Shown here: piece after piece, positions 13,094 through 27,569 of the stretch | Layout of the letters: each line of letters begins with the position of its first letter | Numbering within the stretch: the first letter of the stretch is position 1 | Assembly (NCBI GenBank): GCA_049512935.1 | Contig: JBEKWR010000023.1 | Coordinates: 1 to 32,010 of the forward strand | DNA length: 32,010 nt | DNA from: Candidatus Bathyarchaeia archaeon | GTDB taxonomy: Archaea > Thermoproteota > Bathyarchaeia > Bathyarchaeales > Bathycorpusculaceae | Direction of reading: 5' to 3' | Made by a program: the position numbers and the translations under genes | The notes under the pieces: model-generated | Told to the model about the DNA's origin: nothing | The model's input: only the letters and a program-made list of their open reading frames with translations | Databases searched by the model: none

Positions 13094-13229
13094 ATCAAAC
13101 AGGTTCTTCAAGTCTTCAAAAAAACCATCAATTAACTTCATTTCAGATTCATATAAATGAAAAACCTTAATTCTTCAACGGCAGACTGCCTGTGGATTGA
13201 TTACCGATCTCGCAATGTTTTGTTTAAGC

Positions 13230-14072
13230 TTATTTCTTAAGGTTATTGCTGTTTAAGGAGAATCTGTATGGTCTTTCCGATTTATCTACGGTTATTAATC
13301 CTTTGTTTACTAATCGAATCAGTTCTCTGCCGACAAATCCTCTTGCCATCTTCATTTCTTTCGCAATACTGTCAATGGTGGTGTTCCCTTTTTTGATTTG
13401 CCCAAGTAATGTTTTTTCCATCAACTTTTGTTGTGCAGCCATCCTAAGAGGTTTTTCGATTGGAGACGTAATGCCGTGTTTTTCTTTTAGTCCACGTAGC
13501 GTTTGATAAAGACCGTCTTCCCAGCAGATTCCGGACAATTCAGATTGGCTTCTGCATTCTTGACCGATAATATCCCAATTAAGGCCTGACCGCGCGAGTA
13601 CTCCAGTATCATCTAGGTCTACCTCTCTTGAAGTAATGCCTTTGAACAGAAAAAGGTCCTCCTTTGAAGCCATGAGAATTTTCAAGTGGTTACCTTGATA
13701 GATTGCGGTTGCTCTATTTTGCATCTCATTAGAAAGCGTTAGCTTGCCGCAGACTTTGTTTAGGAATATGTCCCATCGGAAGCTTTCCAGGTTTTCCAGT
13801 ATGGCGCTTGTCTGCACTTCATTGTATGGTCCAGTGATAACAAGAGGATTTGGCTCAGTGTAGCCCAACGCTTCGAGGGTTACTTTTAGGTTGTTCAGAT
13901 CATCTTGGTTTGTAAGAATAACATCAATGTCTTTTGTCGCGTCTTTAACACCGTAAAAAGACATTGCGCCCCCACCTATGAGGTAAAGCGTCAAAGGGTG
14001 CTTCATTGCCGCATTTAGTTTATCGAATTCCTGTTGGAGGTAGTTCTTGTCAAAAGAACGTCTTTGAATCAT
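13230..14072 (-). CDS. Nucleotidyltransferase (DUF6036/AbiEii-like) with C-terminal wHTH; putative toxin
   Basis: YLIGGGAM...KDATKDIDV motif, EDLFLFK...REVDLDD; ATGA overlap with the upstream gene. Confidence 0.8.
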   Translation of the reverse strand: MIQRRSFDKNYLQQEFDKLNAAMKHPLTLYLIGGGAMSFYGVKDATKDIDVILTNQDDLNNLKVTLEALGYTEPNPLVITGPYNEVQTSAILENLESFRWDIFLNKVCGKLTLSNEMQNRATAIYQGNHLKILMASKEDLFLFKGITSREVDLDDTGVLARSGLNWDIIGQECRSQSELSGICWEDGLYQTLRGLKEKHGITSPIEKPLRMAAQQKLMEKTLLGQIKKGNTTIDSIAKEMKMARGFVGRELIRLVNKGLITVDKSERPYRFSLNSNNLKK

Positions 14073-15016
14073 TCAGCAGTCACCAAGTAGTCCTTAGCTT
14101 TCGTTATAAACTCCTCCCACGTGGGCAATGAGTGATCTTTTGGTTGCACATGAGTATCTAGGAATTGAAACAACTTGGTTATTTCATTTGCAAGCCCAAA
14201 CCTGTTGGCTGCTTGTAACAGATAGGTTTTATCAATTTGTTGACAAGTTTTTTTGAGCAGCAAAAGCGCGTAGGTTTTGTACCTGACATTCGTCGGTTCT
14301 ATAAGTAGAGTATGCAGTAACACATCTTCAAGTTTGAGCGTTTTCTTGTTTGTTGAATAAAAGTAATAATCAAACTCAGAAATTAGAGGAAGGTCATATT
14401 GAGGGAACACTGAAAGAGCTGTTTTGAAAAAGTTCGGCATGGATGGCTTGGTGTCATTTGGAACTCTTATCAGAAATTCCATGTCCTTTTGCCAGAGAAT
14501 AGCCGAGTTTTCCGAGAACGTACGAGCGAGCTTGTTTGCGAAGAACTTTTGGTATTCACGCAAGAACTCAATTAGAAGATTGAATTGCGGGTTAATTGCG
14601 TTTGTTGGTGTGATTATTCCTCTAGCCTTCAAATTTCTGCGGTATCTCCACAGAGTGCTCTTTGGGGCGGTTGCAAGATTTTTATTGTTTTCTAACAACT
14701 CAAATAGAATTCTGAGGGCTTTCCCGCTCAATATATTATCCCAATCAACGTAGTCGTATGTTAAGATTAAGTCTCTTAGAACTATTGCATGTTTGAAATC
14801 AGCAATAAATACCTGTTTTTTGTTATTTTTTTTGACTGTTCTCGCAAGCCCTTTTGTTTGAAGCTTTTGCAGATTATAGGAAAGAAGTGATGGGCTTACG
14901 GAGAGTGTAGTCTCTATTGAAGAGAGGTCGTGTTTTCCTTTCGCTATCTCTTCAAGGATTTTTAATTCTGCTTTGCTGAAGGAGTATTCTGAGCTTGCGG
15001 TTTTCATAAGTTCCAT
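14069..15016 (-). CDS. wHTH regulator, putative AbiEi-like antitoxin
   Basis: N-terminal FSKAELKILEEI...SPSLLSYNLQKLQTKGL HTH; translationally coupled to the nucleotidyltransferase. Confidence 0.7.
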   Translation of the reverse strand: MELMKTASSEYSFSKAELKILEEIAKGKHDLSSIETTLSVSPSLLSYNLQKLQTKGLARTVKKNNKKQVFIADFKHAIVLRDLILTYDYVDWDNILSGKALRILFELLENNKNLATAPKSTLWRYRRNLKARGIITPTNAINPQFNLLIEFLREYQKFFANKLARTFSENSAILWQKDMEFLIRVPNDTKPSMPNFFKTALSVFPQYDLPLISEFDYYFYSTNKKTLKLEDVLLHTLLIEPTNVRYKTYALLLLKKTCQQIDKTYLLQAANRFGLANEITKLFQFLDTHVQPKDHSLPTWEEFITKAKDYLVTAE

Positions 15017-15058
15017 TATATTGAAATACTATATAAGCTTTTCAATCTTATGGAACTT
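15008..15058 (-). promoter_or_regulatory. 19-bp inverted-repeat operator enclosing a TATA box
   Basis: AAGTTCCATTATATTGAAA (15008-15026) and TTTCAATCTTATGGAACTT (15040-15058) match at 17/19; spacer contains TATATAAG. Confidence 0.75.
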
Positions 15059-15132
15059 TAAAAGTTTAAACAACTGATTAAAAAATCTCTTCCAAAAGCC
15101 AACAACCCTAAACAGTCTCCCTACGCTTGTAG

Positions 15133-15215
15133 CTAGACCAGCAAAACCCATGCATGCGTTGTCATAGTCAAGGTTGGTCTGCGATGGCAGCCCGCCACGC
15201 TAACCTGTCAGGTCC
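15133..15215 (+). ncRNA. Possible truncated SRP RNA S-domain-like fragment
   Basis: GATGGCAGCCCGCCACGCTAACCTGTCAGGTCC resembles the SRP helix 6-to-8 junction but lacks the GGAAG..AGCA continuation; local stems are possible. Confidence 0.3.
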
Positions 15216-15291
15216 AAACCTCAGCGGATTTACCATTCTCTTAAACCATCTTGAAAAATCTTATATTGCTTGTTTTTTCTTAGAGTAGATT

Positions 15292-15720
15292 ATGGCAAAA
15301 GTCAAGGATATCATGACTAAGGAAGTTGTTTCAATAGGCGTTAACAACAGCGTTTTTGAAGCGGCGGTGCTGATGGGTTCAAGCCAAATCGGCTGCTTGG
15401 TGATAGTGGACGGAGAATCACCCGTTGGAATAGTCACTGAAAGGGACATCGTAAGAAGAGTAATCGCGAAAAGACTGCCTTTAGACACTAAGGTTTCAGA
15501 CATCATGTCCAAATCCCTCATCACGGTTGACCCTGGCGCTTCGCTTAAGGAGGCGGCGCGGCTCATGTCAAGCAACAAGATTCGAAGGCTCCCAGTCATG
15601 CAGCAGAACAAGCTTGTCGGAATCGTTGTGGCTGCCGATTTAGTGCGTGACCTCGGGAAGAAATCTGTTTCCGAGGAAATAATTGAGGCTATGGGACGTC
15701 ACCCTGCCACCCTGACCTGA
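15292..15720 (+). CDS. CBS domain protein
   Basis: KVKDIMT...GIVTERD and VSDIMS...IRRLPV tandem CBS repeats. Confidence 0.93.
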   Translation: MAKVKDIMTKEVVSIGVNNSVFEAAVLMGSSQIGCLVIVDGESPVGIVTERDIVRRVIAKRLPLDTKVSDIMSKSLITVDPGASLKEAARLMSSNKIRRLPVMQQNKLVGIVVAADLVRDLGKKSVSEEIIEAMGRHPATLT

Positions 15721-15860
15721 ACGTGAGACCCGCCTTTTTCCAAGTCGTGACTGAACGGGCTAAGAGAAGCCATAAAAGAGAGCGTTAAGCTACTTAGAAA
15801 TAGGAAATTCACGGCTGTTTTCGATTGTAACAGCTGGCTGTTTGGGATGGTTGAGAAAAA

Positions 15861-17180
15861 ATGAGCATCTTTAGAGCGTATGATATTCGAGGAATCTACG
15901 GTGAGGATTTGACGGTTGAAATCATGGAGAGAATCGGCAAGGCTGCGGGAACCCTGTGCCCTGGCAACTTCACGGTTGGAAGAGACTTCAGGGAGCACAG
16001 CGACGAGCTGGAGAAAGCGTTCATCTCAGGCGTATTAAGCACAGGTTCAAACGCCCACTTAATCGGCACCTGCCCAGCCAGCCTCTGCGTCTTCGCTAAC
16101 TGGCATCTGAAAAACGACGTCGCCGCCTACATCACCGCTTCACATCTGCCTGCGAACTGGAACGGCGTGAAGTTTTTCCACCAGGACGGCGTCGGCTTCT
16201 TCGAGGAGGAAAACAAGAAGCTTGAGCAGATTCACCTTTCAGGCGAATTCAAGAAGGGCGTTGGCAAAGCGGAAAACATCGCTGGGATGGAAGAAAAATA
16301 CATCGCTTTCATCAAGGAAAGAATAAAGCCGAAAAAGCTGAAGGTGGTGATTGATTTCGGGAACGGCGCAGCCTGCCTGCTTGTCCCCAAAATTCTGAAA
16401 AGCCTAAACGTTGAAGCCAAGTACCTGTTTGATTGGCCTGACTCAACATTCCCAAACCGTGACCCTGAACCTAAACCTGAATCGCTGGGCGCGCTCAGCA
16501 AGAAGGTTGTTGAGGAGAAGGCGGATTTGGGAGTGGCTTTTGACGCGGACGGCGACCGCGCTCTTTTCGCCGACGAGAAGGGTAGGGTCATGATGGCGGA
16601 GCAAAGCGCAGTTTTGCTGATGCGTGACCTGATGAAGACAAGAAGGGGACCCGTCGTCGCCAACATCGAGTGCTCCAGCCTGCTTGATGAGGAAGCCGCA
16701 AAGTTCGGTCAGCAGGTTTTTCGCATTCCCGTGGGGCACACGTTTCTGGTTCAGCAGACCAAGGAGCACAACGCCATTTTAGGCGTGGAGAAGTCGGGGC
16801 ACATATGCGTGCCAAAGTTCACGTGGTTCGACGACGCCATTATCAACAGCGTGTACCTGATGGAGATAGTTTCAAACCTTGGCAAGAAAGTCTCCGAAGT
16901 CGTGGATAAGCTTCCGAAGGAGTTCTTTGACCGCGTAGAGCTTGACAGCACCGACGAGGCAAAGTTCGCGTTGGTTGAACGGGTAAAAGAGGCGGCAACG
17001 GAGCGGTACAGCAAGATAACGGCGATAGACGGCGTGCGAGTGGATTTTCCCGATTCGTGGGCGTTGATTCGCGCGTCAAACACCAGCCCGAAGATAAGGC
17101 TGACCATTGAGGCTAAAAGCCAAAAGAGACTTCAAGAGTTAAAAGCTGAGATGATGAACCTAATCGTGAGCGTAAGTTGA
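15861..17180 (+). CDS. Phosphomannomutase/phosphoglucomutase
   Basis: IFRAYDIRG, TASHLP, DADGDR, EKSGH, RASNTSP. Confidence 0.95.
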   Translation: MSIFRAYDIRGIYGEDLTVEIMERIGKAAGTLCPGNFTVGRDFREHSDELEKAFISGVLSTGSNAHLIGTCPASLCVFANWHLKNDVAAYITASHLPANWNGVKFFHQDGVGFFEEENKKLEQIHLSGEFKKGVGKAENIAGMEEKYIAFIKERIKPKKLKVVIDFGNGAACLLVPKILKSLNVEAKYLFDWPDSTFPNRDPEPKPESLGALSKKVVEEKADLGVAFDADGDRALFADEKGRVMMAEQSAVLLMRDLMKTRRGPVVANIECSSLLDEEAAKFGQQVFRIPVGHTFLVQQTKEHNAILGVEKSGHICVPKFTWFDDAIINSVYLMEIVSNLGKKVSEVVDKLPKEFFDRVELDSTDEAKFALVERVKEAATERYSKITAIDGVRVDFPDSWALIRASNTSPKIRLTIEAKSQKRLQELKAEMMNLIVSVS

Positions 17181-17220
17181 ATCATTGCCGCTCCAGACTT
17201 TTCCAGCGTTGGCCTGAATG

Positions 17221-18906
17221 TTACTTTGACTTGTTTGGAGCCTCGCCACTTGAGGCACCGTGAATGTATCTTTTTCCTCTAAGAAGCGACGCGACAGCTG
17301 CGACGCCTGCTAACACGGCACTCACATAGAACGCGCTGTGCAGGGAAGACATGAAGGATTTTGCTATCGCATTTGGGAACCAGTGCAACCCAGTGAGAGT
17401 GCTGATTGCTTGGCTGCTTAGTGATGCCGCTACGCTGGGGGGCAGCTGGGCTAAGATTGACGCGACGGGGTTGTAGCCTAAGAAGGCGGAGAAGAGCGAT
17501 TGCGTCGGCGAGAGCGCAGTGAAGTAGTGGACCAACTGAAGCGCTCCTGCGTTGGTTAAGGAGGAAGCGAAGGCTGATGGAAGCCCGTTTGAAAGCGAGA
17601 AAACGATGACTGCGAAGAACGCGGCGATGCTTGCCACCATCCCTGTGTTCTGCAGCGTGGTTCTCATTCCAGATGCGACGCCTCTGTTCTCAGGCGGCAC
17701 CGAGTTCATTATCGACGCTGTGTTAGGCGAAGCGAACATGCCCATCCCGAGCCCCTGCACGTATATCAACAAAGCGAAGTCGAGGTAGTCGAAGTTGTAG
17801 GGAAGCGTTGCCAAGCCAAGGAATGTCACGCAGGTAATTACCATGCCGAGGCTAGCCAAACCCCTCGCACCGTACTTGTCCGATAGGGTTCCGCTGATTG
17901 GCCCCATGGTTACGAACCCAGCTGAGAGGGGAAGCAGGTAGACTCCAGCCCAGAAAGGCGTGTCTGTGTAGCTGACCCCGTGCAGAGGAAGCCAGATGCC
18001 CTGGAGAAGTATGCTGAGCATGATCATCACGCCGCCCCTTGCCATTGAAGCGAGAAAACCAGCAAATATTCCCGCGGAGAACGTGCGAATCTTGAAGAGG
18101 CTGAGCTTGAACATGGGCGATTTGACTACTCTTTCCACGAAGGGGAACGCCACGAGCAGCGCAGCGCCAGATGTCAGGCCAGCTATCACATATGGGTCAG
18201 ACCAGCCCATGCTTGAGGAGCCGTAAGGAAGCAGCCCGTAAGTAAGCGAAATCAAAAGCACGGTTAAGCCAACGGCGAATGTGACGTTGCCCCAAACATC
18301 AATCTTCTCGCCTCTGCACATCGTTCCCAGCTCCTTTAGCTTCCAGTAAGACCACACCGCCCCAAAGGTGCTCACGGGAACGCTGACCAAAAAGACAAGC
18401 CTCCAATCGATCGTCGCCAAGGTGCCGCCTATGACGAGCCCTATAAACGAGCCTGCCAATGCCGCGACCTGATTTATGCCAAGAGCCTTGCCCCGCTCAT
18501 TCGTTGGAAACGCGTCTGTTATTATCGCGGCGCTGTTTGAAAAAAGGAAGGCCGCTCCGACCGCCTGAACGATTCGGAAAAAGATCAGTTCCAACGCGCC
18601 AAGGTCTCCCATGTTCGGGGTGAGGAAAAGAAGGATGGAGCCGACGGCGAATATTGCGAACCCCAAGTTGTAGAGCCTGACCCTTCCGAAAATGTCCGAG
18701 ATTCGCCCGAACGACACCAGAAGCGTTGCGGTGACGATCAAGTAGCCGAACAAAATCCAGAGCAGGTAAGGAAACGAAGTCGTCGGGTTCAGGTTTATGC
18801 CGCGGAAAATTGCTGGAAGAGCTATGAGCACTATCGTGCCGTCTATGGAAGCCATCAAAGTGCCAAGCGTCGTGTTGGAAAGCGCAACCCACTTGTACTC
18901 AACCAT
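17221..18906 (-). CDS. MFS transporter (DHA2/EmrB-like)
   Basis: GRISDIFGR motif A, ERGKALG, many transmembrane segments. Confidence 0.95.
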   Translation of the reverse strand: MVEYKWVALSNTTLGTLMASIDGTIVLIALPAIFRGINLNPTTSFPYLLWILFGYLIVTATLLVSFGRISDIFGRVRLYNLGFAIFAVGSILLFLTPNMGDLGALELIFFRIVQAVGAAFLFSNSAAIITDAFPTNERGKALGINQVAALAGSFIGLVIGGTLATIDWRLVFLVSVPVSTFGAVWSYWKLKELGTMCRGEKIDVWGNVTFAVGLTVLLISLTYGLLPYGSSSMGWSDPYVIAGLTSGAALLVAFPFVERVVKSPMFKLSLFKIRTFSAGIFAGFLASMARGGVMIMLSILLQGIWLPLHGVSYTDTPFWAGVYLLPLSAGFVTMGPISGTLSDKYGARGLASLGMVITCVTFLGLATLPYNFDYLDFALLIYVQGLGMGMFASPNTASIMNSVPPENRGVASGMRTTLQNTGMVASIAAFFAVIVFSLSNGLPSAFASSLTNAGALQLVHYFTALSPTQSLFSAFLGYNPVASILAQLPPSVAASLSSQAISTLTGLHWFPNAIAKSFMSSLHSAFYVSAVLAGVAAVASLLRGKRYIHGASSGEAPNKSK

Positions 18907-19000
18907 GAAATTTGCACCCCTTGCATGGTCAGCCAGCGTTACGGAATTATCAGGCTTTTCTTCACTTCTTACTTAATAATTTATGGGTATCCTCTCAAGA

Positions 19001-19045
19001 GGCTGTAGATTCCGACTCTCGATTCTCGCGCCCGAAGCTACATGC
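19001..19045 (-). repeat. Highly degenerate tRNA-Pro-derived repeat (copy 5)
   Basis: GGCTGTAGATTCCGACTCTCGATTCTCGCGCCCGAAGCTACATGC; last 18 nt match the tRNA at 16/18, and AGATT...ACTCTCG is in register with copy 2. Confidence 0.55.
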
Positions 19046-19082
19046 AATTCTCCACGAAACCAAACGATTTTTCGAATCCGAA

Positions 19083-19472
19083 TTATCTGGTTTGCTTGGG
19101 GTTGTACCTGTTTTTCTCTGAGAAGAAGTCCATCACTCGGGTTCTCTGAAAGAATTTGGCAGAATGAGCCGCGCCTGCCGGAATAAGGTATTCGTCGCCT
19201 TTCATGAAGACTCTCGGCTGACCAGCAATGTTCATCTCCATTTTTCCATCGATAACGATTCCCCACTGAGGATAACTGTGGCTGTGCGCAGGCAGATCGG
19301 TGCCCGCTTCAAACTGGAAAAAAACCAGCTGACTCGACTCCGCCTGGTGAATCCATGCTTTTGCGCCTTCAATTTGAATTTCCGCTTTCGGCAGACGAGT
19401 TATAACTTCGGGGTAACCTGAAGCCTTCTGAGACAGTGTTTTAACCAAGCGTTTACACCTGTGGATATGCAA
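19083..19472 (-). CDS. Cupin domain protein; start probably slightly downstream
   Basis: PAHSH..QWGIVIDG...GDEYLIPAGAAH. Confidence 0.88.
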   Translation of the reverse strand: MHIHRCKRLVKTLSQKASGYPEVITRLPKAEIQIEGAKAWIHQAESSQLVFFQFEAGTDLPAHSHSYPQWGIVIDGKMEMNIAGQPRVFMKGDEYLIPAGAAHSAKFFQRTRVMDFFSEKNRYNPKQTR

Positions 19473-19735
19473 GTTGCGGAAAGATAGAAAAACCCTTTGG
19501 ATTTGCTTCGCAGGTTGCAGACTTTAAGGTTGGGCTGGTTAGGAGCCCTGCGCTCACGTTTGGGAATTGCCTTTTCACTTTCAAAGCCTCTTCTTTCCAA
19601 AGAACAACGCCCATGTCAATTTATTATCAGAGCAAGTGCACTCATTTTCGATAACTTTAAAGAAAGCTGGGAAGTTCTCAATGAAGTTTGGTTTGCGGGA
19701 CCATGCTCATTCTGAATTTGACTGGGGCTGATTGT

Positions 19736-20182
19736 CTATGGTGATAGTCCAAGTTGCTTCATGAATCCGACAACATCATAGAACAGTCTTTCTTCCACGA
19801 TTTCGCCGTTTTTCCATGTGGCAACTGTGCAAAATTCAAGTTTCGCCGTCTTCCCCGTAGGCTGGATAATCTTTCCATCTGCACCTTTCATTGGTCCTTT
19901 CATAGTCACTGTCCAATCAGCCACGGTGCATGTGTGGTTTTCGTCTCCAAACGCTATCTTGTAAGGATTGTTGACTAATCGATTGTCGAAGGTTTTGAAG
20001 AACTCAGTTGCTTCGACGTCGTGGTTGTGTCGTCCTCTTGTAGGGTCGGGTCGAGCGGGCCAGTACACGGCGACGTCTTCTCTGTGACGCTTCTTAAACG
20101 TCTCCCAAAGCGGACTCCCAGGTCCTGCATTCCAAGCATCATCAAGAGTCTTCATCAACTCAAGATTTTCCTTAGAACCCAT
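19736..20182 (-). CDS. SnoaL-like ester cyclase / NTF2-like protein
   Basis: LDDAWNA...PTGK...GEIVEERLFYD..GFMKQLGL. Confidence 0.9.
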   Translation of the reverse strand: MGSKENLELMKTLDDAWNAGPGSPLWETFKKRHREDVAVYWPARPDPTRGRHNHDVEATEFFKTFDNRLVNNPYKIAFGDENHTCTVADWTVTMKGPMKGADGKIIQPTGKTAKLEFCTVATWKNGEIVEERLFYDVVGFMKQLGLSP

Positions 20183-20310
20183 ATTGCTAACCTCACTATC
20201 TGTTTTACCCGTCTAATGCTAATAAACTTGTAACGCGATTAATGAACTGAAAAAACTGGCGTTTTTGTGAATGGATTTCAGTTTTATTGTTTCGCTAAAA
20301 AAGCGCAGGT

Positions 20311-20637
20311 TTAGATTTGATATTTTGGGCGTTTGGCTTCTTTTAACCAAAATTGGTTGTCATCAACCCTGATAACTTGAACTTCAATGACGTTTTTAGG
20401 GCAAGTCATTGCCGCGCGTAACTTGGTGGGCAGGTCGGGTTTTGCCAGAAGCGTCATTCTAGACTCCTCTAACTGGTCTGCTACGCGCTCGGCTTTTTTG
20501 TTGGCGTAGCCGCCGTACTTTACGCTTTTTCCGTCAGTGATGGCTTTGTCAAAGTCGTCTTTGCTGCATTGGATCAGCTTGGCGCCATCTCGGATAAACC
20601 AGTATGGAAGAGCCTTACTCATAATAATCGTCGGCAA
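20311..20637 (-). CDS. Hypothetical protein
   Basis: About 103-108 aa ORF; likely ATG start at MSKALP. Confidence 0.6.
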   Translation of the reverse strand: MPTIIMSKALPYWFIRDGAKLIQCSKDDFDKAITDGKSVKYGGYANKKAERVADQLEESRMTLLAKPDLPTKLRAAMTCPKNVIEVQVIRVDDNQFWLKEAKRPKYQI

Positions 20638-20841
20638 TAGGGTTTAGGCGACTCCTAATTAACGTTGTCTTCGCTGACGCAGATTAGCGCCTCAGAAGTA
20701 GAATTCAAATCGATCATTACGAGCAACCAGTCCGCTTCACACTGACGTGTTTATCATCATAGGCGCCCTAAAACAGCGATTACAACTGCAAAACCATTTT
20801 AAAAACGCATAATAATTTTAGAAGAAAAATTCTGCGGAGTG

Positions 20842-20982
20842 TTAACGTTTGAGGGTAAGCGTAAGCGAATGGCCTTTGTGGGCAGCCATCCTGTGGATTC
20901 TTAATTCTTCAGGATTCTGAAATTTCGCGGAACACAACCTGCACTTAAATTCCTGACCGTAAATGACTTTGCTATCCAACAT
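20842..20982 (-). CDS. Small C2H2 zinc-finger protein (46 aa), not in the ORF track
   Basis: MLDSKVIYGQEFKCRLCSAKFQNPEELRIHRMAAHKGHSLTLTLKR = F-x-C-x2-C-x3-F-x5-L-x2-H-x4-H; GGAGAAGGTTGAGG upstream. Confidence 0.8.
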   Translation of the reverse strand: MLDSKVIYGQEFKCRLCSAKFQNPEELRIHRMAAHKGHSLTLTLKR

Positions 20983-21188
20983 CAGCCTCAACCTTCTCCA
21001 TCGGTTCGCAAAAATTGCTTCTTACAAACCGCTTAGCAGAGTACAACTAAGCCACTTATAAACCAACGATTAATTTCCGCCAAAATCACCATTCATTTTC
21101 GTCAAAATTTGTGTTTACTAACGTCAATTTTTCAGGCATGTTAAAACTTAAATAGAAATTCTAACAATTCTAAAGATGGGTAATTGAA

Positions 21189-21410
21189 ATGTCAATAGAT
21201 ATAAAACTTGAACGTGGCGTCAGAGGATACACCATCGTCAGGAAAAAATGCCCGAACTGCGATGCTGAATTGATCTTCAAGATCCACAAGAACGCAATCC
21301 ACGACGTAGGCGGAGAAGGAATGTATTATCCTGAAGAAAACGTTGTCCGCTGCAAAGTCTGCATGAGCACATTCAAGTACGAAACCAAACTTAAGGCTGA
21401 AACCAAGTAA
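21189..21410 (+). CDS. Small zinc-ribbon protein
   Basis: CPNC...CKVC. Confidence 0.75.
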   Translation: MSIDIKLERGVRGYTIVRKKCPNCDAELIFKIHKNAIHDVGGEGMYYPEENVVRCKVCMSTFKYETKLKAETK

Positions 21411-21561
21411 GCAGCAACCAACAAAAAGAATCCGTGCTATCGCAACTACTTCATTAGCTTACGCTCAAAAACTTGATTCTGAAGGTTAGTCTCCAACTTA
21501 CGATTTTTCAAGGATGTTGTTTCCTGCAAAATGTCAAGCCCAAAATCAAGGACTGCTGTTT

Positions 21562-21597
21562 GCCGGAAGGATTGAACTCTCGTCTATAACGCCCGAG
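21562..21597 (-). repeat. Degenerate tRNA-Pro fragment (copy 4)
   Basis: GCCGGAAGGATTGAACTCTCGTCTATAACGCCCGAG aligns to the T-arm through the anticodon of the tRNA and copy 2. Confidence 0.75.
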
Positions 21598-21802
21598 AGT
21601 ATCATTACAAACCAAGTTTACAACAATATTCCAATAAGCAACTTTCTATTATCAGCTGATCATTTGACGTATTAGGCGTCGTGCCGCATTCCTTTTCAGC
21701 GTAGTTATTTCATGTTATCTTTTGACGCTGAGTCTGTCTTAAGGACCAAAGAGCAAGGGCTTTCTCAAAGATTATAAGATAATCCGTTGCTATAAAGTAG
21801 AC

Positions 21803-22210
21803 ATGAAAGCTTGCGTGCTTTACATTTCACGCACAGGAAACACCAAACGTTTAGCCGAAGCAATCGCAGATTTGTTAAAAGCACCTATTTTCAACATAAC
21901 CTCCGCCCCTGACCCTTCACTTGTTTTAGACTTCGACTTGTTGATTATCGGCACGCCAGTTATGGGTCTTAAACCAGCTCCCGAAGTGCACTCGTTCGTT
22001 AAGCGCTTGCCAAACAGCACAGAAAAGAAAACAATCCTTTTCTGCACATACGCAATAAAACAAGGCGGAACCTTAAAAGTTCTGGAAAAAGAGCTAACAA
22101 CCAAGGGGTACGTTAACGTGTTGAGCGTTTCAAAACGAGGGCTCAAACCAAGCAAAACTGACTTACAAGACGTTCTATGCCAGATAAGCAACGCAGCAGA
22201 ACCCAAATGA
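21803..22210 (+). CDS. Flavodoxin family protein
   Basis: YISRTGNTKRLAEAI FMN loop, IIGTPV, LFCT. Confidence 0.9.
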   Translation: MKACVLYISRTGNTKRLAEAIADLLKAPIFNITSAPDPSLVLDFDLLIIGTPVMGLKPAPEVHSFVKRLPNSTEKKTILFCTYAIKQGGTLKVLEKELTTKGYVNVLSVSKRGLKPSKTDLQDVLCQISNAAEPK

Positions 22211-22351
22211 AAACGGGAAGCCCCTTTAAGAATTAATTAAATTGAAGTGGATTTCCTTGATTTGAAACGATTTCAAAAACATTCCGATATCTTCACGCAA
22301 TTTACTATTAGCATAAACGTTAAGAGCAATTGGAAACGATAAGGCTTAGAT

Positions 22352-22828
22352 ATGGCTGATGTGACCGCTTATCTTTTTGCTGGTTTCATACTACTTGTTG
22401 TTTTCCTTTATCTTGCACTTTGGGCTCTAACTAAGCTTCGTATACCTACCAGTGCAAGAAAAGAATATGGAATCAAGTCAATCACTGAACAGGGCATACT
22501 TGTAAGGAGCATAAGTGAAAAGCGGATTGCTGACTACTTTGATAGAATCAACATAAAGTATCAATACGAACGCGGGGCGGGCTATGGTTTGGGTCACCCA
22601 GACTTTTACCTGCCCGACTACGATGTGTACGTCGAATATTGGGGACTAGTTAATGCGGATGACTTGCTAACACGTGAGAGATATGTCAGGCACATGAAAA
22701 GAAAAATGGCAATCTACCATAAGCACAACCTCAGGTTGGTTTCGATATATCCACAGAACATGGAAAACTTGAATTGGATATTCAGACAGAAGTTCAGACA
22801 AGCCACTGGTTATGAACTCGACAACTAA
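22352..22828 (+). CDS. Membrane-anchored PD-(D/E)XK-like nuclease domain protein
   Basis: N-terminal TM helix; VRSISEKRIADY...YQYE...PDFYLPDYDVYVEYWG. Confidence 0.7.
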   Translation: MADVTAYLFAGFILLVVFLYLALWALTKLRIPTSARKEYGIKSITEQGILVRSISEKRIADYFDRINIKYQYERGAGYGLGHPDFYLPDYDVYVEYWGLVNADDLLTRERYVRHMKRKMAIYHKHNLRLVSIYPQNMENLNWIFRQKFRQATGYELDN

Positions 22829-22837
22829 AGGAGCAAT

Positions 22838-22927
22838 TAGTGGGGCTTCCCGGAATTTGAACCGGAGTCTATAGCGTTCTCGGCATGGCTCGCATTTAGG
22901 AGCCGTGTGCCCGAGGCTACAAGCCTG
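22838..22927 (-). pseudogene. tRNA-Pro(CGG) fragment with a 33-nt 37/38 intron (copy 3)
   Basis: Aligns from D-arm to 3' end; insert 22877-22909 lies one base 3' of the anticodon; CCA mutated to CTA; 5' acceptor strand missing. Confidence 0.85.
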
Positions 22928-22979
22928 AGTTGAGTGCTGGCTGGATGGATTTGGCACCAAAAAACTTATTTGCAAACTT

Positions 22980-23015
22980 ATCTATTTAATAGATCATATG
23001 ACATCTAAAATAGAT
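22980..23015 (+). promoter_or_regulatory. Palindromic operator candidates at the MNT-HEPN start
   Basis: ATCTATTTAATAGAT (22980-22994) and related ATCTAAAATAGAT (23003-23015) flank the ATG at 22998. Confidence 0.45.
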
Positions 23016-23621
23016 CAATTGTTCGGTTCAAAAACCCGTGTAAGCTTGCTAACCAAACTTTTGTTAAACCCTGACGCAAAATTCTACACGCGTGAGCTTT
23101 CACGGGACCTTCGCATACCCTACAGCATGCTATATAAAGAACAAAAAAAACTCGCATCGCTAGACATAGCTAAGGAGGAAAAAAAAGGCAAAATCACACT
23201 TGTATCGGCAAACAAAGAGTTGCCTTATTTTATTGACCTAAAGAATTTAATCATGAAAACCGCTGGATTAGGTGACCTGTTAAAAAAAGGTTTCTCAGAC
23301 TTACAGTGTATTCGCTTCGCGCTTGTCTATGGTTCTATCGCGAGCGGGCAGGAAACTGCAAGAAGCGATATCGACCTTTTAGTTGTAGGCGAAATAAATG
23401 AGGAAAAAATATTAAACGTCACAGACCTAATCGAGAAGCAAGTTGGCAGAGAAGTAAACTATATCCTATGGAGCAACGACGAATTTATGCAAAGACTCAA
23501 AAGCAAACACCATCTACTTGCAGACATTGCCAAGAAACCTGTCATAATGGTCAGGGGAAACGAGGATGACTTTAGAGGAACTATTGAAGAACCGAATCAT
23601 AAGTCGAATAGACCCCAATAG
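22998..23621 (+). CDS. wHTH-fused minimal nucleotidyltransferase (MNT antitoxin)
   Basis: LFGSKTRVSLL...FYTRELSR HTH; VYGSIASG...SDIDLLVVG MNT motif. Confidence 0.9.
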   Translation: MTSKIDQLFGSKTRVSLLTKLLLNPDAKFYTRELSRDLRIPYSMLYKEQKKLASLDIAKEEKKGKITLVSANKELPYFIDLKNLIMKTAGLGDLLKKGFSDLQCIRFALVYGSIASGQETARSDIDLLVVGEINEEKILNVTDLIEKQVGREVNYILWSNDEFMQRLKSKHHLLADIAKKPVIMVRGNEDDFRGTIEEPNHKSNRPQ

Positions 23622-24009
23622 GAATATAGCGTTAAAGTCTATCAAGCGAGCTAAAAGAGATATTGAAGCAGCCAAAACGTTGATTGCAACATGCCAATTC
23701 GACTGGTCACTAGCTGTTTCCTACAACGCTATGCTTGCAGCTGGACGCGCACTAATGTTCGACAAGGGATATCGACCATCAAGCACTGAAGGCCATTTGG
23801 CAGTTGTCCAGTTTCTAACCATAACGTTAGGGGAAGAATCAGGCAGCAGAATGGTTCTAATAATGAATGGCATGCGCAAGAAGAGACACCGCATAGTCTA
23901 CGAAGAAATGGATATAGTCTCTCTGAAAGAAGCGAAACAGGCGGTTGAATGGGCAGAAGAATTCATCGAGTTAATAGCGAACCAAATCAATCAAAACCGA
24001 GAAATGTAA
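23566..24009 (+). CDS. HEPN domain protein (putative RNase toxin)
   Basis: AKRDIEAAK...SYNAMLAAGRAL...EGH...RKKRHRIVYE; overlaps the MNT gene. Confidence 0.88.
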   Translation: MTLEELLKNRIISRIDPNRNIALKSIKRAKRDIEAAKTLIATCQFDWSLAVSYNAMLAAGRALMFDKGYRPSSTEGHLAVVQFLTITLGEESGSRMVLIMNGMRKKRHRIVYEEMDIVSLKEAKQAVEWAEEFIELIANQINQNREM

Positions 24010-24011
24010 GT

Positions 24012-24084
24012 TGGTGGGGCTGGAGAGATTTGAACTCTCGTCCATAATGCCCGAGGCTACAAGCCTGGAACAAGCGACCGACAG
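24012..24084 (-). pseudogene. Near full-length degenerate tRNA-Pro(CGG) (copy 2)
   Basis: About 62/74 identical to 26666-26739; keeps CCA; T-stem replaced by GAGAG/CTCTC; 5' GGGG lost. Confidence 0.88.
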
Positions 24085-24141
24085 GATGCATCAAAGGTGT
24101 GTTAGCTTGTCGTCCAGTCGACTGATTTCTCGGGTTTCTAC

Positions 24142-24666
24142 TTATGTTGGCCACAATTTGTTTCTTAGGACAGGTGGGAGGTCATCAGGCTCAGGCAGCG
24201 TCCCAATTGATAAACAATATTTTACCTTGTTGAGGTCAAAAACAAACTTAGGCGGAACACCACCCGCAACAATTAAGTGTTCATAACTTTGTCTAGCGCC
24301 AAACTTTACGCTCGTCAATACTGCCTTAAAAGTTGGAACATAGAGTTCAATAATCTTAAGCCTCTCCAGCGTAGAAATGTCGGGTGCTATTTCGAAATAA
24401 CGAATATCAATTGATTGTGACATAACTATCGGAGTGTGAACCCCTCCAACAAAATCAACAATGGGCAAGCCATCCTCTTCAACGGGTTGGGTCCATACCG
24501 TTGCAAGGTTCCAATGAAACCTACTGATTACTGTTTTTCTTTTACCATTTGAATAGACAAAAACTGGCTCATAATCTAGTTTCTTGTATAAATCCCAACG
24601 CCAATAAAAATAATGAATGTTGTTTTGTTCATGAACCCTTTCTGGGCAACACTCGCAAATCTTCAC
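24142..24666 (-). CDS. Hypothetical protein (cassette cargo)
   Basis: 174-aa AT-rich ORF abutting the upstream gene's stop. Confidence 0.65.
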   Translation of the reverse strand: MKICECCPERVHEQNNIHYFYWRWDLYKKLDYEPVFVYSNGKRKTVISRFHWNLATVWTQPVEEDGLPIVDFVGGVHTPIVMSQSIDIRYFEIAPDISTLERLKIIELYVPTFKAVLTSVKFGARQSYEHLIVAGGVPPKFVFDLNKVKYCLSIGTLPEPDDLPPVLRNKLWPT

Positions 24667-25463
24667 TATCTGATGCGATAAACAATAGCCCTCCCTAGCT
24701 TCTCACCGTTTTTTTCTAGTATTGCCGGTTTTAACTCTTTATCTCTTGCCTCTTTCTTTATCATGGCAATTTCGTTAAGCAGACTTGTGAATTTATGGAA
24801 ACTTTCCAGATTACAGTTATTATCCTTTGCTTGAACAAGCAAATTCATTGATTGGTCATGTAGGTCATGCATAACATCGTAATTCAAGGTGTTTTTATCA
24901 TAAGCAGATTCGGCAAAGCGAAAAGCGTTTTCCATATTTTCAAGAAATTTAATGTCTGCCTCTGAAAGCATTTGTTTTTCTATATTTGATGATATTTCCT
25001 TTAAAGCACTGGTTTCGTCCATAAAATTGCCTGAAATAGCATCGATTCCCATGTCAGCATTAGCAGTGACAAAAACCAATAGCTCTTTTCTGTTGCATTT
25101 AGTCGAGACAAAATCCCATTGCTCCAAGGAGTCAATTATAGGGCTCACCTTATTGCGGCTTATGTCACTGAATTCTGAAATTCCGCTTATCGTGGGTTTA
25201 AGTTCTTTGCAAGAGCCCGCCAGTCGTGCTGTTATCAATACTTTGAGCGAGTCAATTACGCTTTCCCTTAATCCATTAATTACTTCGGTTGAAAAATTGG
25301 GATCAGATAATGCCTTTCTTGCCAACTTGCATTGAAATAGGACAACGTCTCGTTCTTTGATACCGGTTCTTCTCAGTTTCTCTGCTACAACGGTTGGCTT
25401 GAGTAATACAAAGTCTGAGAACTCTAGTTGAGCCTTCCGTAAAACAATCTCTGTCTGGGACAC
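24666..25463 (-). CDS. Hypothetical protein with internal wHTH (cassette cargo); start reassigned to GTG 25463
   Basis: PTISGISEFSDISRNKVSPIIDSLEQWDFV HTH-like segment; the track's start at 25751 would read through a tRNA remnant and overlap another ORF. Confidence 0.65.
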   Translation of the reverse strand: MSQTEIVLRKAQLEFSDFVLLKPTVVAEKLRRTGIKERDVVLFQCKLARKALSDPNFSTEVINGLRESVIDSLKVLITARLAGSCKELKPTISGISEFSDISRNKVSPIIDSLEQWDFVSTKCNRKELLVFVTANADMGIDAISGNFMDETSALKEISSNIEKQMLSEADIKFLENMENAFRFAESAYDKNTLNYDVMHDLHDQSMNLLVQAKDNNCNLESFHKFTSLLNEIAMIKKEARDKELKPAILEKNGEKLGRAIVYRIR

Positions 25464-25533
25464 TGCAATCACGCATGCATTGTATGCATTGCATGCAATA
25501 TTAACATTACGGAGCTGATGATACCCTAAAGGC

Positions 25534-25587
25534 GGTGGGCTGGAGAGATTTGAACTCCGTCCATGACGCCCGAGGCTACAAGCCTGG
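25534..25587 (-). pseudogene. Degenerate tRNA-Pro(CGG) fragment (copy 1)
   Basis: GGTGGGCTGGAGAGATTTGAACTCCGTCCATGACGCCCGAGGCTACAAGCCTGG; two 1-nt deletions relative to copy 2; weak similarity continues to about 25601. Confidence 0.85.
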
Positions 25588-25629
25588 TCATAATCAGCCA
25601 CCACGAATGCAAGCCTTTCCTCAAATTGT

Positions 25630-26505
25630 TCATGCTTGCTCAGGACGTGTGGAGCCAGGGGGTGGGGATGGGACATGAACAGGAGAGCTTGCAGGGCTTG
25701 CAGGCGCATTCGATTCGTTTGGTGACGTTCGGTCAGCATAGACCGGGACAACTTGTCTTATATCCACTTCATTGACCAGATGCATGAAGTCCCCGCACCA
25801 GCTGCACTTGGCGGTGTTCATCGGCTGCTCCGACTGCCCGCAATTGGTGCAAGTCTTGAAGGCAGGAGAATAGCCAGCATGGAATATCCTGTCGATGATT
25901 GTGTTAATGCGGTTCAGTTCGCTCTGGTCATGCGCAATTAACTGGTTTTCGACGTTAATCTCATGCTGTTCCTGCGCGGTCCGTGCCTGCGCATCTGGAT
26001 TTGGAACCACTTCATTCCTGTAACCTCCAGAACCCGCAAAAAACTGGAAGTTTTTCTGCTCCCCGGGCTCCGTGTTCAGCGTACCGAAAATTGGCGGCAG
26101 CATGTAGGGCTCGTATGTACTTTTGGTCTCCGTTGTTTGAGTCTTTGCGATGTTCCGCTGATGGATGTTTATGTAATTTTGGATGTAACCAATTCTGAAG
26201 GCGTAATACCCCGAAAAGCCTCTAAGCACCTGCGTTGGCCACTCATCGAAGGGAACGTTTCCATCGAGCAATTTCTTTATTATGGATGCGTGTCTCCTGC
26301 AGAGAATGAACGATGGAGATTGCTCGTACCCGGGTAAATAGACCCCTTGGTCGTCTCGGTTACTGTTAGGATATATCTTCAACTGGCAGACGAAGCACGC
26401 TTCGAGGTTCTTGGAATGGAACCGCTGATAACTGGGAAGCTGCCGTACGGGCTGAACGGGTTTGGTCGACTGAGGTAACGGCTGCTTGTTTCTCAAAGGT
26501 TTCAT
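25630..26505 (-). CDS. Hypothetical protein with zinc-binding motifs and Pro-rich termini (cassette cargo)
   Basis: CFVC...CRRH at the N-terminus; CTNC...CSWC ribbon near the C-terminus; TATATA box at about 26529. Confidence 0.7.
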   Translation of the reverse strand: MKPLRNKQPLPQSTKPVQPVRQLPSYQRFHSKNLEACFVCQLKIYPNSNRDDQGVYLPGYEQSPSFILCRRHASIIKKLLDGNVPFDEWPTQVLRGFSGYYAFRIGYIQNYINIHQRNIAKTQTTETKSTYEPYMLPPIFGTLNTEPGEQKNFQFFAGSGGYRNEVVPNPDAQARTAQEQHEINVENQLIAHDQSELNRINTIIDRIFHAGYSPAFKTCTNCGQSEQPMNTAKCSWCGDFMHLVNEVDIRQVVPVYADRTSPNESNAPASPASSPVHVPSPPPGSTRPEQA

Positions 26506-26665
26506 CAGTTTTAATCGATAGGTCTCAATATATAAGCTTTAAGTTTCAGCTTTTGAACGATATTTTTCGTTTTTTCGATTATAATAATACAGCTGTTGCG
26601 ACAGCACTAAGTACGGTTATGCAGGCAATGGCTGATGATTACTCGTCCTCGCTCTATCAGTTGCA

Positions 26666-26743
26666 TGGTGGGGCTGGCCGGATTTGAACCGGCGTCTATA
26701 GCGCCCGAGGCTACAAGCCTGGACCAAGCTAGCCGACAGCCCC
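26666..26743 (-). tRNA. tRNA-Pro(CGG), intronless, CCA encoded
   Basis: GGGGCTG acceptor stem, D-arm AGCTTGGTCCA, anticodon arm GTAGC-CTCGGGC-GCTAT, GCCGG-TTCAAAT-CCGGC, ACCA; TTTAAA box upstream at about 26800. Confidence 0.95.
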
Positions 26744-26957
26744 CGTTCAAAGTTGGCTCGGTTTTTAGCGGGTTCATAGAATAATGCCTGCTTGGCTTTA
26801 AACTTTAACGGTTTAGAATGTTTGCTGTTTACCATGTTTCTTTGTTTTTTTGGGGAAGCCATGCTCCTGTTTTTCCCTACGCAACTTGCAACTTGTTGTT
26901 GATGATGATGGCTTTAACCACACGACTTAAACCTGAACTTGCTGCTAAAAGAAGCGA

Positions 26958-27569
26958 CTAGCTTAAGCCCTCGGTTGCCGCAGAGGCAGTCGGGTTCGCA
27001 ATCGTTTCAGGCTTGATTAGAGGTTGGAGAATGTGTCCATGGTAGAGTCTTGCGGCTAGGCATAATGCGGCGCCCGCTATTGCGAAGTAGAAGGACAATT
27101 GGAAGCTTCCTGAAACTAGCGCGGATACGGTGGCTCCACTAGTCCAGCTTCCAGGTATGGTGGCTGTTGCTGAACCGTTCAATGGAATGTTTACGCCGAA
27201 ATGTCCCGCGACTAACACGATTACCACCAGGAGAACGATGAAGCTTACTACGGTGTATAACGGTTTTTTCCATGAGAAGCCGAGCAGTTGCTTAGCGTAA
27301 GGTTTGGTGGGAACCAGCGAGTAAATCAGCATTACTAACCCGCAGGCTGTGAATGTCAAAATGGTTATGAGGTTCAGCGCCCAGATTAGCGGTATCGTGA
27401 ATTGGTCGCCGAACAAGCCGAAATTCGTGTAGATAGGGGAAGCATTAATCCTGATGAAGTCTTGACCAATCGTTAACTGCCACCAGGGCTCGAAAAGGGA
27501 GATAACAAGCATCACCAGCGTGATTATTCCAGCGGCGAGACCTAACCAGTTTATTTGTCTCACGATCAA
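26958..27569 (-). CDS. Hypothetical multi-pass membrane protein
   Basis: Four hydrophobic segments, N-terminal PWW; overlaps the upstream gene by 4 nt. Confidence 0.8.
   Translation of the reverse strand: MIVRQINWLGLAAGIITLVMLVISLFEPWWQLTIGQDFIRINASPIYTNFGLFGDQFTIPLIWALNLITILTFTACGLVMLIYSLVPTKPYAKQLLGFSWKKPLYTVVSFIVLLVVIVLVAGHFGVNIPLNGSATATIPGSWTSGATVSALVSGSFQLSFYFAIAGAALCLAARLYHGHILQPLIKPETIANPTASAATEGLS

Follow-up and report, generated by a model that had tools for sequence, protein, structure and literature searches.

A row of small recombinase-less gene units behind a bathyarchaeal tRNA-Pro(CGG) gene

How does a tRNA gene come to head a row of displaced fragments of itself, with small sets of genes between them and no enzyme on hand to have placed them there? 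The question is raised by a 32,010-nt stretch of DNA (hereafter the window) from a Candidatus Bathyarchaeia archaeon (assembly GCA_049512935.1, contig JBEKWR010000023.1), which is the whole of contig C23 of a genome, G000, of 2.30 Mb on 49 contigs and 93% completeness; the sequencing runs that bear this DNA are peat and wetland metagenomes. A first-pass annotation had read the region as an integron-like, age-ordered array of cassettes, added one after another at a tRNA-Pro gene by a recombinase acting in trans. Our analysis indicates that the locus is very probably an additive genomic island anchored on tRNA-Pro(CGG) and built by accretion, whereas the whole statement, in which accretion is joined to minimal units mobilised in trans, stands at even chances. 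The array and its order, the swapping of tRNA alleles, the differences between relatives and the lack of an integrase are observed directly, and are described below.

The tRNA copies and the alleles they record

The one intact tRNA gene of the window, a tRNA-Pro(CGG), is the insertion target (Table 1), and blastn-short searches with this resident gene recovered five further co-oriented copies at the sites that the first-pass annotation had named, with the best background match at E 3.4. The two distal copies were weak in this search because the resident tRNA is the wrong allele to query with: when the displaced tRNA copy of a relative, G196, which has a GAGAG T-stem, was used instead (the GAGAG-allele query), all five copies scored between E 6e-5 and 5e-20, confirming that they are real. 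In a tile scan of both strands (1,064 tiles), the top 14 tiles fell on the same six sites, on the minus strand and with scores of 15-55, and the next tile scored 13. All six sites are intergenic. Rfam cmscan at E<=10 over 18500-27000 listed only the intact tRNA and the copy at 24012, both under the tmRNA model (clan filtering). Block sizes and gene counts agree with what had been described, as do the short distances from the HEPN ORF end (24009) to Remnant 2 (start 24012) and from the nuclease ORF end (22828) to Remnant 3 (start 22838-22840). The two most distant copies are also the most decayed, as had been noted, at 77-78% identity to the GAGAG-allele query against 89-92%, and remnant identity drops with distance from the tRNA. 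These two oldest remnants are recognisable only with a relative's allele as query, not with the resident tRNA, which is a practical warning. Remnant 5 was considered as a chance match (E 0.13 with the resident query) and this was rejected, given its score with the GAGAG-allele query and its place in the 100-nt junction where synteny with G196 breaks. Remnant 4 is the same as the tRNAs of G238, G293 and G245 over 26 of 26 nt, and lies within a 244-nt stretch (21513-21756) that is missing from G277.

Among relatives, tRNA-Pro(CGG) takes three forms: one with a CCGG T-stem, one with a GAGAG T-stem and one with an intron. The resident gene has the CCGG form, Remnants 1, 2, 4 and 5 the GAGAG form, and Remnant 3 the intron form. 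The GAGAG/CTCTC stem is fully compensated, its pattern occurs in 42 of 332 genomes of the family (including 25 of 119 of the genus), and ARAGORN called an intact tRNA-Pro(CGG) at 20/20 GAGAG loci fetched. Full-length genes of the intron-bearing form, with a homologous 37/38 intron at the syntenic locus, were found in seven genomes and are 80-91% identical to Remnant 3 over 83-93 nt. The insert of ~33 nt in Remnant 3 (22877-22908) is, judged by its sequence, a true tRNA intron at the 37/38 site, and both intron and acceptor variant match intron-bearing alleles of the same genus (G165, G304). The remnants appear to be fossils of alleles that are functional in relatives, and not merely decayed copies of the resident gene. 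Because their T-stems and intron belong to alleles that are intact elsewhere, each insertion exchanged the 3′ part of the tRNA; the array records successive states of one gene, and one insertion swapped an intron-bearing 3′ part for an intronless one. The 3′ part of the resident tRNA probably came from the newest unit; the resident gene is 100% identical to that of four genomes from four other genera (G131, G030, G177, G185).

Automatic annotation would hide the intron-bearing allele, because ARAGORN labels it as a tRNA-Ser(cga) with an intron in two genomes (G105 and G236, loci L095 and L096) and misses the five others. A half-site opposite in kind to the remnants of the window was seen at L102:3045-3101 (G217:C116), where tRNA-Pro positions 24-47, including the intron, are followed by unrelated sequence.

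The ends and alleles of the copies also bear on where the exchange took place. Remnant left ends cluster at tRNA positions 22-26, 42-46 and 52-56 in unrelated units and genomes, which fits discrete classes of attachment (att) site and not random homology. T-stem swapping puts the crossover 5′ of position 51; in the G267 remnant every letter from position 36 onward agrees with the tRNA of that genome, and the part ahead of it has diverged, with a similar pattern in G233 from about position 43; and Remnant 3 keeps its intron together with the matching 3′ part. The T-stem swap and the patterns of G267 and Remnant 3 would all fit a crossover in the anticodon loop. An exact 19-nt stretch common to the tRNA and three remnants was tried as a required core and rejected, as the G233 remnants have 3 changes in it and G267 several as well as a deletion. 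Across the whole of G000, 26 tRNA-fragment copies (Cys, Leu, Gly, Thr, Val, Glu, Arg, Gln, Pro) stand apart from any tRNA gene; the majority begin between positions 22 and 32, and several form short arrays 0.4-1.5 kb behind their tRNA.

Table 1. Features of the tRNA-Pro(CGG) locus in window coordinates, from the tRNA outward. "Resident" and "GAGAG" denote the blastn-short query; tRNA positions are those covered by each copy. ORF, open reading frame.
Feature	Position	Strand	Description
Intact tRNA-Pro(CGG)	26666-26743	minus	CCGG T-stem allele, CCA encoded; ARAGORN, sole tRNA called in window
Unit A	25588-26665	minus	1078 nt; 1 orphan ORF with CxxC pairs, 25630-26505, 291 aa (250-aa call too)
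Remnant 1	25537-25587	minus	tRNA positions 22-73, GAGAG-type T-stem; resident 83%, E 3.5e-9; GAGAG 92%, E 6e-13
Unit B	24085-25536	minus	1452 nt; 2 ORFs: winged helix-turn-helix (wHTH)-like, ~268 aa (24666-25472), and 174-aa protein (24142-24666)
Remnant 2	24012-24084	minus	near full-length, positions 5-78, GAGAG T-stem, acceptor 5′ strand lost; resident 84%, E 9e-17; GAGAG 89%, E 5e-20
Unit C	22928-24011	plus	1084 nt; 2 ORFs: MNT nucleotidyltransferase (22998-23621) and HEPN (23566-24009)
Remnant 3	22838-22927	minus	positions 23-76 of intron-bearing allele; blastn-short, two pieces: 22840-22876 (positions 41-76, E 8e-7) and 22909-22927 (positions 23-41, E 6e-4), ~33-nt insert between
Unit D	21618-22837	plus	~1222 nt; 2 ORFs: PD-(D/E)XK nuclease-like (22352-22828) and flavodoxin (21803-22210)
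Remnant 4	21554-21617	minus	decayed GAGAG-allele copy, positions 16-60; resident 21572-21597, E 0.002; GAGAG 21572-21616, 78%, E 8e-7
Block E	19046-21553	mixed	2508 nt; 5 ORFs: Zn-ribbon, 73 aa (21189-21410); C2H2-like, 49 aa (20842-20991); 108-aa ORF (20311-20637); SnoaL-like (19736-20182); cupin (19083-19472)
Remnant 5	19007-19045	minus	most decayed, positions 26-64 of GAGAG allele; resident 19028-19045, E 0.13; GAGAG 19007-19045, 77%, E 6e-5
Variable DNA distal to array	13092-18990		2.1-kb low-GC insert (13092-15253), phosphomannomutase-like and CBS genes, MFS transporter (17221-18906)

The locus in relatives and in the habitat

If the row grew stepwise at the tRNA, related genomes should differ at the tRNA and at the remnants, and the comparison that the first-pass annotation had called for bears this out: unit content and number vary, and synteny breaks at 26666 and 18990. 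G196, whose core DNA is ~83% identical, has both flanks in common with the window; homology runs exactly up to 26666, where the tRNA ends on its 3′ side, and to 18990, at a distance of 17 nt from Remnant 5, and resumes at 19092. Its own content is an 871-nt VapBC unit, a tRNA copy of positions 3-78 with a GAGAG stem, a Rieske gene, the cupin gene, 48 nt of MNT debris and a 401-aa ORF. G238 and G293 hold the block-E genes behind an intact GAGAG-allele tRNA without a remnant, directly in G238 and with a 1.5-kb block common to G273 in between in G293, and both are without the window's ~10909/13095 to 19095. The stretch 13092-18990 is missing from G238, G293, G277, G245 and G242, in which window ~10909 or ~13035-13095 adjoins the island. 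The cupin gene and the 108-aa ORF occur without SnoaL in G238, G293 and G277, joined by the Zn-ribbon gene in G238 and G277. G277 has three blocks other than those of the window, and its order runs from the flank through cupin, 108-aa ORF, Zn-ribbon, flavodoxin and CBS genes to a remnant (positions 14-73), a G196-type VapBC unit, a 439-aa gene, a second remnant (positions 46-78), two more genes and the tRNA. G245 and G242 have differing first units (that of G245 encodes an 840-aa UvrD-like helicase-nuclease); next comes a remnant that is clear in G245 and only weak in G242 (score 14, below threshold), and both hold an internally deleted MNT-HEPN (92+68 nt) with the same junction of remnant and HEPN 3′ end as Unit C.

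Because relatives hold its genes as conserved flank, block E is old tRNA flank and not one cassette, with SnoaL as a later arrival inside it. Units A-D are later insertions in front of block E, and all of 13092-26665 is variable. The order of addition that had been proposed, older units lying farther out, is supported by the fall of remnant identity with distance and by the block-E genes that stand behind an intact, remnant-free tRNA in G238 and G293. The prediction that breakpoints would lie in the remnants holds for the tRNA 3′ end and the remnants and fails for two swaps, of flavodoxin and of SnoaL: conserved flanks, variable content and breaks at tRNA or remnants are found in G196, G238, G293, G245, G242 and G277, with these two genes as exceptions. 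The SnoaL region (19500-20297) is an insert relative to G277, other DNA takes its place in G238, and SnoaL is 82-86% identical in other genera against ~67-78% for neighbouring genes. In G134, a SnoaL homologue begins 8 nt past a tRNA-Pro(TGG)-like fragment.

Of 46 tRNA-Pro(CGG) loci in relatives, 10 have one or more co-oriented remnants no farther than 10 kb from the gene, a frequency that is overstated because four of the loci (G233, G267, G245, G302) were chosen for two pattern hits. No surveyed relative had more than two remnants at a locus, and the five of the window make it the largest array in the survey.

Some of the small units recur elsewhere together with a remnant. Between G196 and G277, the VapBC unit and the remnant distal to it are 87% identical, whereas the DNA around them reaches 70-78%, and the neighbours differ on both sides. 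A VapBC unit of G233 (771 nt) has relatives at 68-71% in G022, directly behind tRNA-Pro(CGG) and followed by a remnant (positions 36-73); in G176, between two remnants; and in G009, behind tRNA-Pro(TGG) with no remnant detected. G267 has another VapBC unit, of 765 nt, between tRNA and remnant; VapBC-only units of 645-871 nt between tRNA-Pro and a remnant are present in G196, G233, G267 and G022. The remnant/HEPN junction of Unit C likewise recurs, in G245 and G242, behind different first units. The expectation that cargo homologues elsewhere sit beside tRNA-Pro fragments is borne out for these VapBC and MNT-HEPN units; most homologues lie away from such fragments.

In the habitat, the array is identical in all four runs compared, and contig pieces without differing letters cover it in runs from four studies, with the limits that bins without cover occur in runs X5 and X6 and that X1-X3 may be the window's own source and not independent. 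Contigs bridge Remnants 1, 3, 4 and 5, and a second assembly has the same 8621/8621 nt on a 95-kb contig. The single joint seen skips 88 nt within SnoaL and comes from one contig of run X6 with low depth. A metagenome scan with the MNT protein returned the same organism and one 32% relative only. The copies at 24012-24075 and 26666-26743 also occur in runs X1, X4, X5 and X6 on contigs from other organisms, some of them more abundant, and the sequence beyond them is unlike that of the window. At position 24043 an alternative letter has a depth of 38.5 against ~8.5; this fits a GAGAG allele that is common in the same samples or habitat.

The mover and the alternative accounts

The absence of an integrase or its debris from the window, as the first-pass annotation had it, was upheld by every search made. 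A six-frame search of the whole genome with PF00589 (E<=0.01) found only a match on contig C2 and, weakly, one on C21, with none in the window; PF16795 (SSV type) and PF00239 (serine recombinases) had no window match; tblastn with five recombinases of this genus against 13000-27000 gave a best E of 0.30; and Pfam, PHROGs and PADLOC scans of the array ORFs yielded no integrase, relaxase or other mobility gene. The C2 match (C2:123052-124587) is a 511-aa tyrosine recombinase that reads across a tRNA-Gln remnant (124427-124457, opposite strand), with the intact tRNA-Gln 4.6 kb on, and it belongs to another island. The C21 match (G000:C21:3239-4227) is a 140-aa integrase C-terminal fragment just 5′ of a tRNA-Val, with His at what we take to be the place of the catalytic Tyr; behind that tRNA-Val lie a remnant (positions 28-73), a Zn-ribbon gene and a VapBC-like pair. 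In five further genomes with small tRNA-Pro(CGG) units (5/5), PF00589 (E<=0.001) likewise matched nothing up to 100 kb from the array on its contig, and each genome had 4-24 matches elsewhere.

One genome of the genus, G203, does carry an integrase at this gene: a 429-aa tyrosine integrase 58 nt behind tRNA-Pro(CGG), followed by serine recombinases and a TFIIB-like gene, in an element with no DNA in common with Units A-D. Its family was found in 34 of 120 genomes of the genus at E<=1e-10, G000 not among them, and 14 of 15 fetched loci lie beside a tRNA gene or a tRNA 3′-end match. Target choice tracks integrase similarity, with tRNA-Pro(TGG) at 84-86%, tRNA-Pro(GGG) at 75-77%, then Ala, Gly and Arg, and the family (L057, L070-L084) neatly illustrates drift of specificity. 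In 3 of 9 cases a distal repeat of 15-18 nt was found, at +8 to +21 kb, and G203's own tRNA-Pro(CGG) has none within 55 kb.

In the account we favour, circular DNA with a tRNA-derived att site would have entered the tRNA gene by Campbell-type recombination on no fewer than four or five occasions. Every such entry would have rebuilt a working tRNA from the host 5′ part and the incoming 3′ part and pushed the previous 3′ part, with all behind it, one step downstream, the crossover lying 5′ of the T-stem and perhaps in the anticodon loop. Units A, B, C and D, the last inserted, are single-operon blocks of 1.1-1.5 kb without a recombinase, and may have travelled as minimal, att-bearing, non-autonomous units, an archaeal counterpart of cis-mobilizable elements (CIMEs). 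The mover would be a tyrosine integrase encoded elsewhere, in the donor or in a co-resident element, or since lost, and the units would be frozen in G000. It is the circular intermediate and the site-specific catalysis in trans that we infer here.

A number of observations pull the other way. The trans-acting recombinase of the first-pass annotation was not identified: G000, at its 93% completeness, has one full tyrosine recombinase, on a tRNA-Gln remnant, and one fragment, with no Pro-type integrase, and the G203-type integrase was rejected as maker of the remnants because it leaves, where any are found, distal repeats of only 15-18 nt against remnants of 40-75 nt. Rather than a cassette, block E is flank of the tRNA that G238, G293 and G277 conserve, and gene exchange does not always respect the remnants: SnoaL sits inside block E without one, and in G277 it is the flavodoxin gene alone that reaches 91% identity, with 77% for the adjacent block E, which it abuts there without the 244-nt remnant stretch. 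No unit-sized excision joint or empty site was seen in the four runs, from contigs only, which hide rare forms. Of 20 loci with cargo homologues, the retrieved DNA contained a tRNA-Pro gene or a piece of one at only 5. For Units A and B, no relatives turned up in the 119 genomes of the genus, which leaves their mobility hypothetical. Toxin-antitoxin (TA) pairs, moreover, resist loss and could be the residue of larger elements.

This last point leads to an account that we judge possible yet on the unlikely side, in which the blocks are the last pieces of ordinary integrase-bearing viruses or plasmids of several kb to ~20 kb at tRNA-Pro, eroded until selection had kept TA and defence genes. An integrase-bearing element does occupy tRNA-Pro(CGG) in the genus, in G203; CIMEs are defined as deletion derivatives in the cited text (PMC7563491), and tycheposon islands, as the cited part of their description has it, hold partial tRNAs and fragmented integrases (bioRxiv 10.1101/2020.12.28.424599). 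Internal deletion occurs at this very locus, where G245 and G242 keep only 92+68 nt of MNT-HEPN and G196 only 48 nt, and addictive TA pairs would be the last to go. Against erosion, 13.5 kb contains zero integrase debris, and Units A-D are packed, ORFs filling ~72-93% of them and reaching intact to 2-70 nt from the att copies. The recurrent VapBC units of 645-871 nt would, moreover, need repeated deletions ending exactly at att sites, and the short repeats of G203-type elements are a poor match to the remnants. Distinctly less probable is that the array arose by homologous recombination without an integrase, the tRNA serving as portable homology, with a block looping out between repeats and re-entering another tRNA-Pro by a single crossover. 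The tRNA is 92-100% conserved across genera and identical in four others; remnants of 40-75 nt are long enough for archaeal recombination; two copies are near full-length (5-78 here, 3-78 in G196), more than a site-specific core needs; and the 26 fragments of about nine tRNA species in G000 were left in a genome without a Pro-type integrase, where one enzyme could not serve all. Yet the remnant left ends cluster at few positions, as att classes would, the identity patterns of G267 (from 36) and G233 (from ~43) fit a fixed crossover near the anticodon loop, and cell-to-cell movement of a non-replicating circle is left unexplained.

A purely local origin of the copies, by chance similarity or segmental duplication without insertions, could draw on the weakness of the two distal copies with the resident query (E 0.002 and 0.13). 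The correct allele raises these to E 8e-7 and 6e-5, the six sites lie between genes and point the same way, the intervening blocks show no sequence relationship to each other, three natural alleles are represented, and relatives differ exactly at these points; for practical purposes this account is refuted.

Cargo, known counterparts and meaning

The cargo ranges from orphan genes to candidate defence systems. For the Unit A ORF the only Pfam lead was DZR (E 0.063); its protein had no homologue except itself among 5.8 billion proteins and no fold lead in the protein Atlas, and its DNA had no match in the 119 genus genomes save 99 nt (75%, G213) at the tRNA-proximal non-coding end. Unit B had no match in the same genomes; its wHTH-like protein has a weak TrmB match (E 0.073) and scores of 0.88-0.90 to wHTH clusters, as leads only, and its 174-aa protein returned itself and three relatives at 36-57% identity, on short contigs that give no context. 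Neither unit had a recombinase lead in the protein Atlas. A 361-aa frame that runs through Remnant 1 (24666-25751) was considered as a chimeric split integrase and rejected, because no integrase domain is present and the frame continues downstream as a wHTH-like protein. Unit C matches Polbeta (1.5e-9), HEPN (1.2e-13) and, in PADLOC, PDC-M05A (9e-46) and PDC-M05B (2e-14), both parts of the candidate system PDC-M05, and is a putative toxin-antitoxin or candidate defence pair. Unit D matches flavodoxin (3e-10), PDC-S69 / HEAT_CxxC_PD-DEXK (1e-14) and a resolvase-like PHROG (2e-7). Distal to the array, the low-GC insert at 13092-15253 is without counterpart in G196 and encodes a DUF6036 nucleotidyltransferase with a wHTH tail (13230-14072) and an HVO_2833_C/wHTH protein (14069-15016); it looks like another two-gene insert, and no tRNA remnant was seen at its edges.

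The closest described systems are CIMEs in accretion arrays and tRNA-anchored islands of successive integration. CIMEs are given in the cited text as 1.2-13 kb and microCIMEs as 130-220 bp; streptococcal ones lie in tandem at the 3′ ends of conserved genes, including tRNA-Lys CTT in S. agalactiae, and in 37 composite structures the most decayed units were always farthest from the target gene (PMC7563491). As far as that text describes them, Units A-D resemble CIMEs in that each stands between two tRNA-Pro copies, lacks integrase and transfer genes, is of similar size and is arranged in tandem at a gene 3′ end with decay increasing away from the target; the remnant-only stretch of 244 nt (21513-21756) is in turn like a microCIME. 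They differ in that the host is an archaeon, that no integrative conjugative or mobilizable element stands in tandem and no conjugation machinery is present, that units go down to 645-871 nt in relatives, and that att copies span up to 75/78 nt of the tRNA and record allele and intron swaps. Neither the 32-kb contig nor the 8.6 kb of identical sequence from the 95-kb contig holds an autonomous mobilising element. The CIME class is, in the same text, defined by descent from a larger element; what Units A-D share with it is att flanks and the absence of mobility genes.

Tycheposons of Prochlorococcus are described, in the cited part, as incoming elements that push older ones deeper, with partial tRNAs scattered and defence and niche cargo (bioRxiv 10.1101/2020.12.28.424599); the likeness lies in a tRNA-anchored island grown by successive integrations. 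Integrases are present in the 937 elements of that account, and fragmented ones in the islands, in contrast to the window units, which have neither an integrase nor a trace of one. Of the features of an additive tRNA-anchored island, the intact tRNA at one end and the co-oriented partial 3′ copies were found, and integrases or their fragments inside it were not. Archaeal elements, according to the cited sections, integrate into the tRNA 3′ part, with 'suicidal' integrases of pNOB8 and SSV type (PMC7253208, PMC8371274), and the smallest cryptic integrated element given for Thaumarchaeota, of 2.6 kb, still encodes an integrase (PMC6563490). By those accounts, arrays by re-use of one tRNA site and VapBC, HEPN and PD-(D/E)XK cargo are shared with integrated archaeal elements, and the int(N)/int(C) halves that mark the ends of SSV-type elements have no match in the window by PF16795 or tblastn. 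Our literature search on archaeal and bathyarchaeal integrated elements returned no such arrays from Bathyarchaeota and no integrase-less units this small.

The likeness to integrons drawn by the first-pass annotation stands as an analogy only. Integrons, archaeal ones among them, have intI beside attI and rows of attC-bounded, promoterless, co-oriented cassettes behind a common promoter (Pc), and clusters of attC sites lacking integron integrases (CALINs) belong to the same family of structures. A row of small one- or two-gene units of variable content and order, newest next to the insertion point, is what the locus shares with them. Here intI, attI and a Pc promoter are all missing. Where an integron would have attC hairpins, the units are bounded by direct copies of the 3′ part of the tRNA (no attC model was run). 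The genes have upstream regions of their own and read in both directions, Units A and B from the minus strand, C and D from the plus strand and block E from both, and each insertion rewrites a functional tRNA. Trapped elements are said to have been treated as a route of gene capture by She et al. in 2001, under the title 'Gene capture in archaeal chromosomes'. The ssrA islands of Dehalococcoides reportedly lie in tandem, separated by direct repeats of the gene 3′ end, and are said to carry a serine recombinase of their own and to be larger than the units here. For these islands, site-specific integration at a small stable-RNA gene is described, in the part cited, as a mechanism common in the genus (PMC3146451).

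Collectively, the locus is a well-preserved tRNA-anchored additive island, known in type and unusually minimal in form. A far-reaching and rather doubtful extension is that Bathyarchaeia run a tRNA-anchored cassette exchange. In it, single-operon att units of 0.65-1.5 kb with TA, defence or orphan genes and no recombinase would be excised and inserted either by integrases supplied in trans from another source or by the recombination machinery of the host, with tRNA genes as an archaeal functional analogue of integron platforms; turnover of tRNA alleles and introns would then be a by-product. If minimal units really move, they would offer a testable route by which TA and defence genes spread among uncultured archaea with few plasmids or viruses. 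Whatever the mover, the array shows insertions rewriting an essential gene, with three successive tRNA-Pro(CGG) alleles in one locus, and the replacement of an intron-bearing allele by an intronless 3′ part bears on how archaeal tRNA introns are gained and lost and on their link to mobile-element integration.

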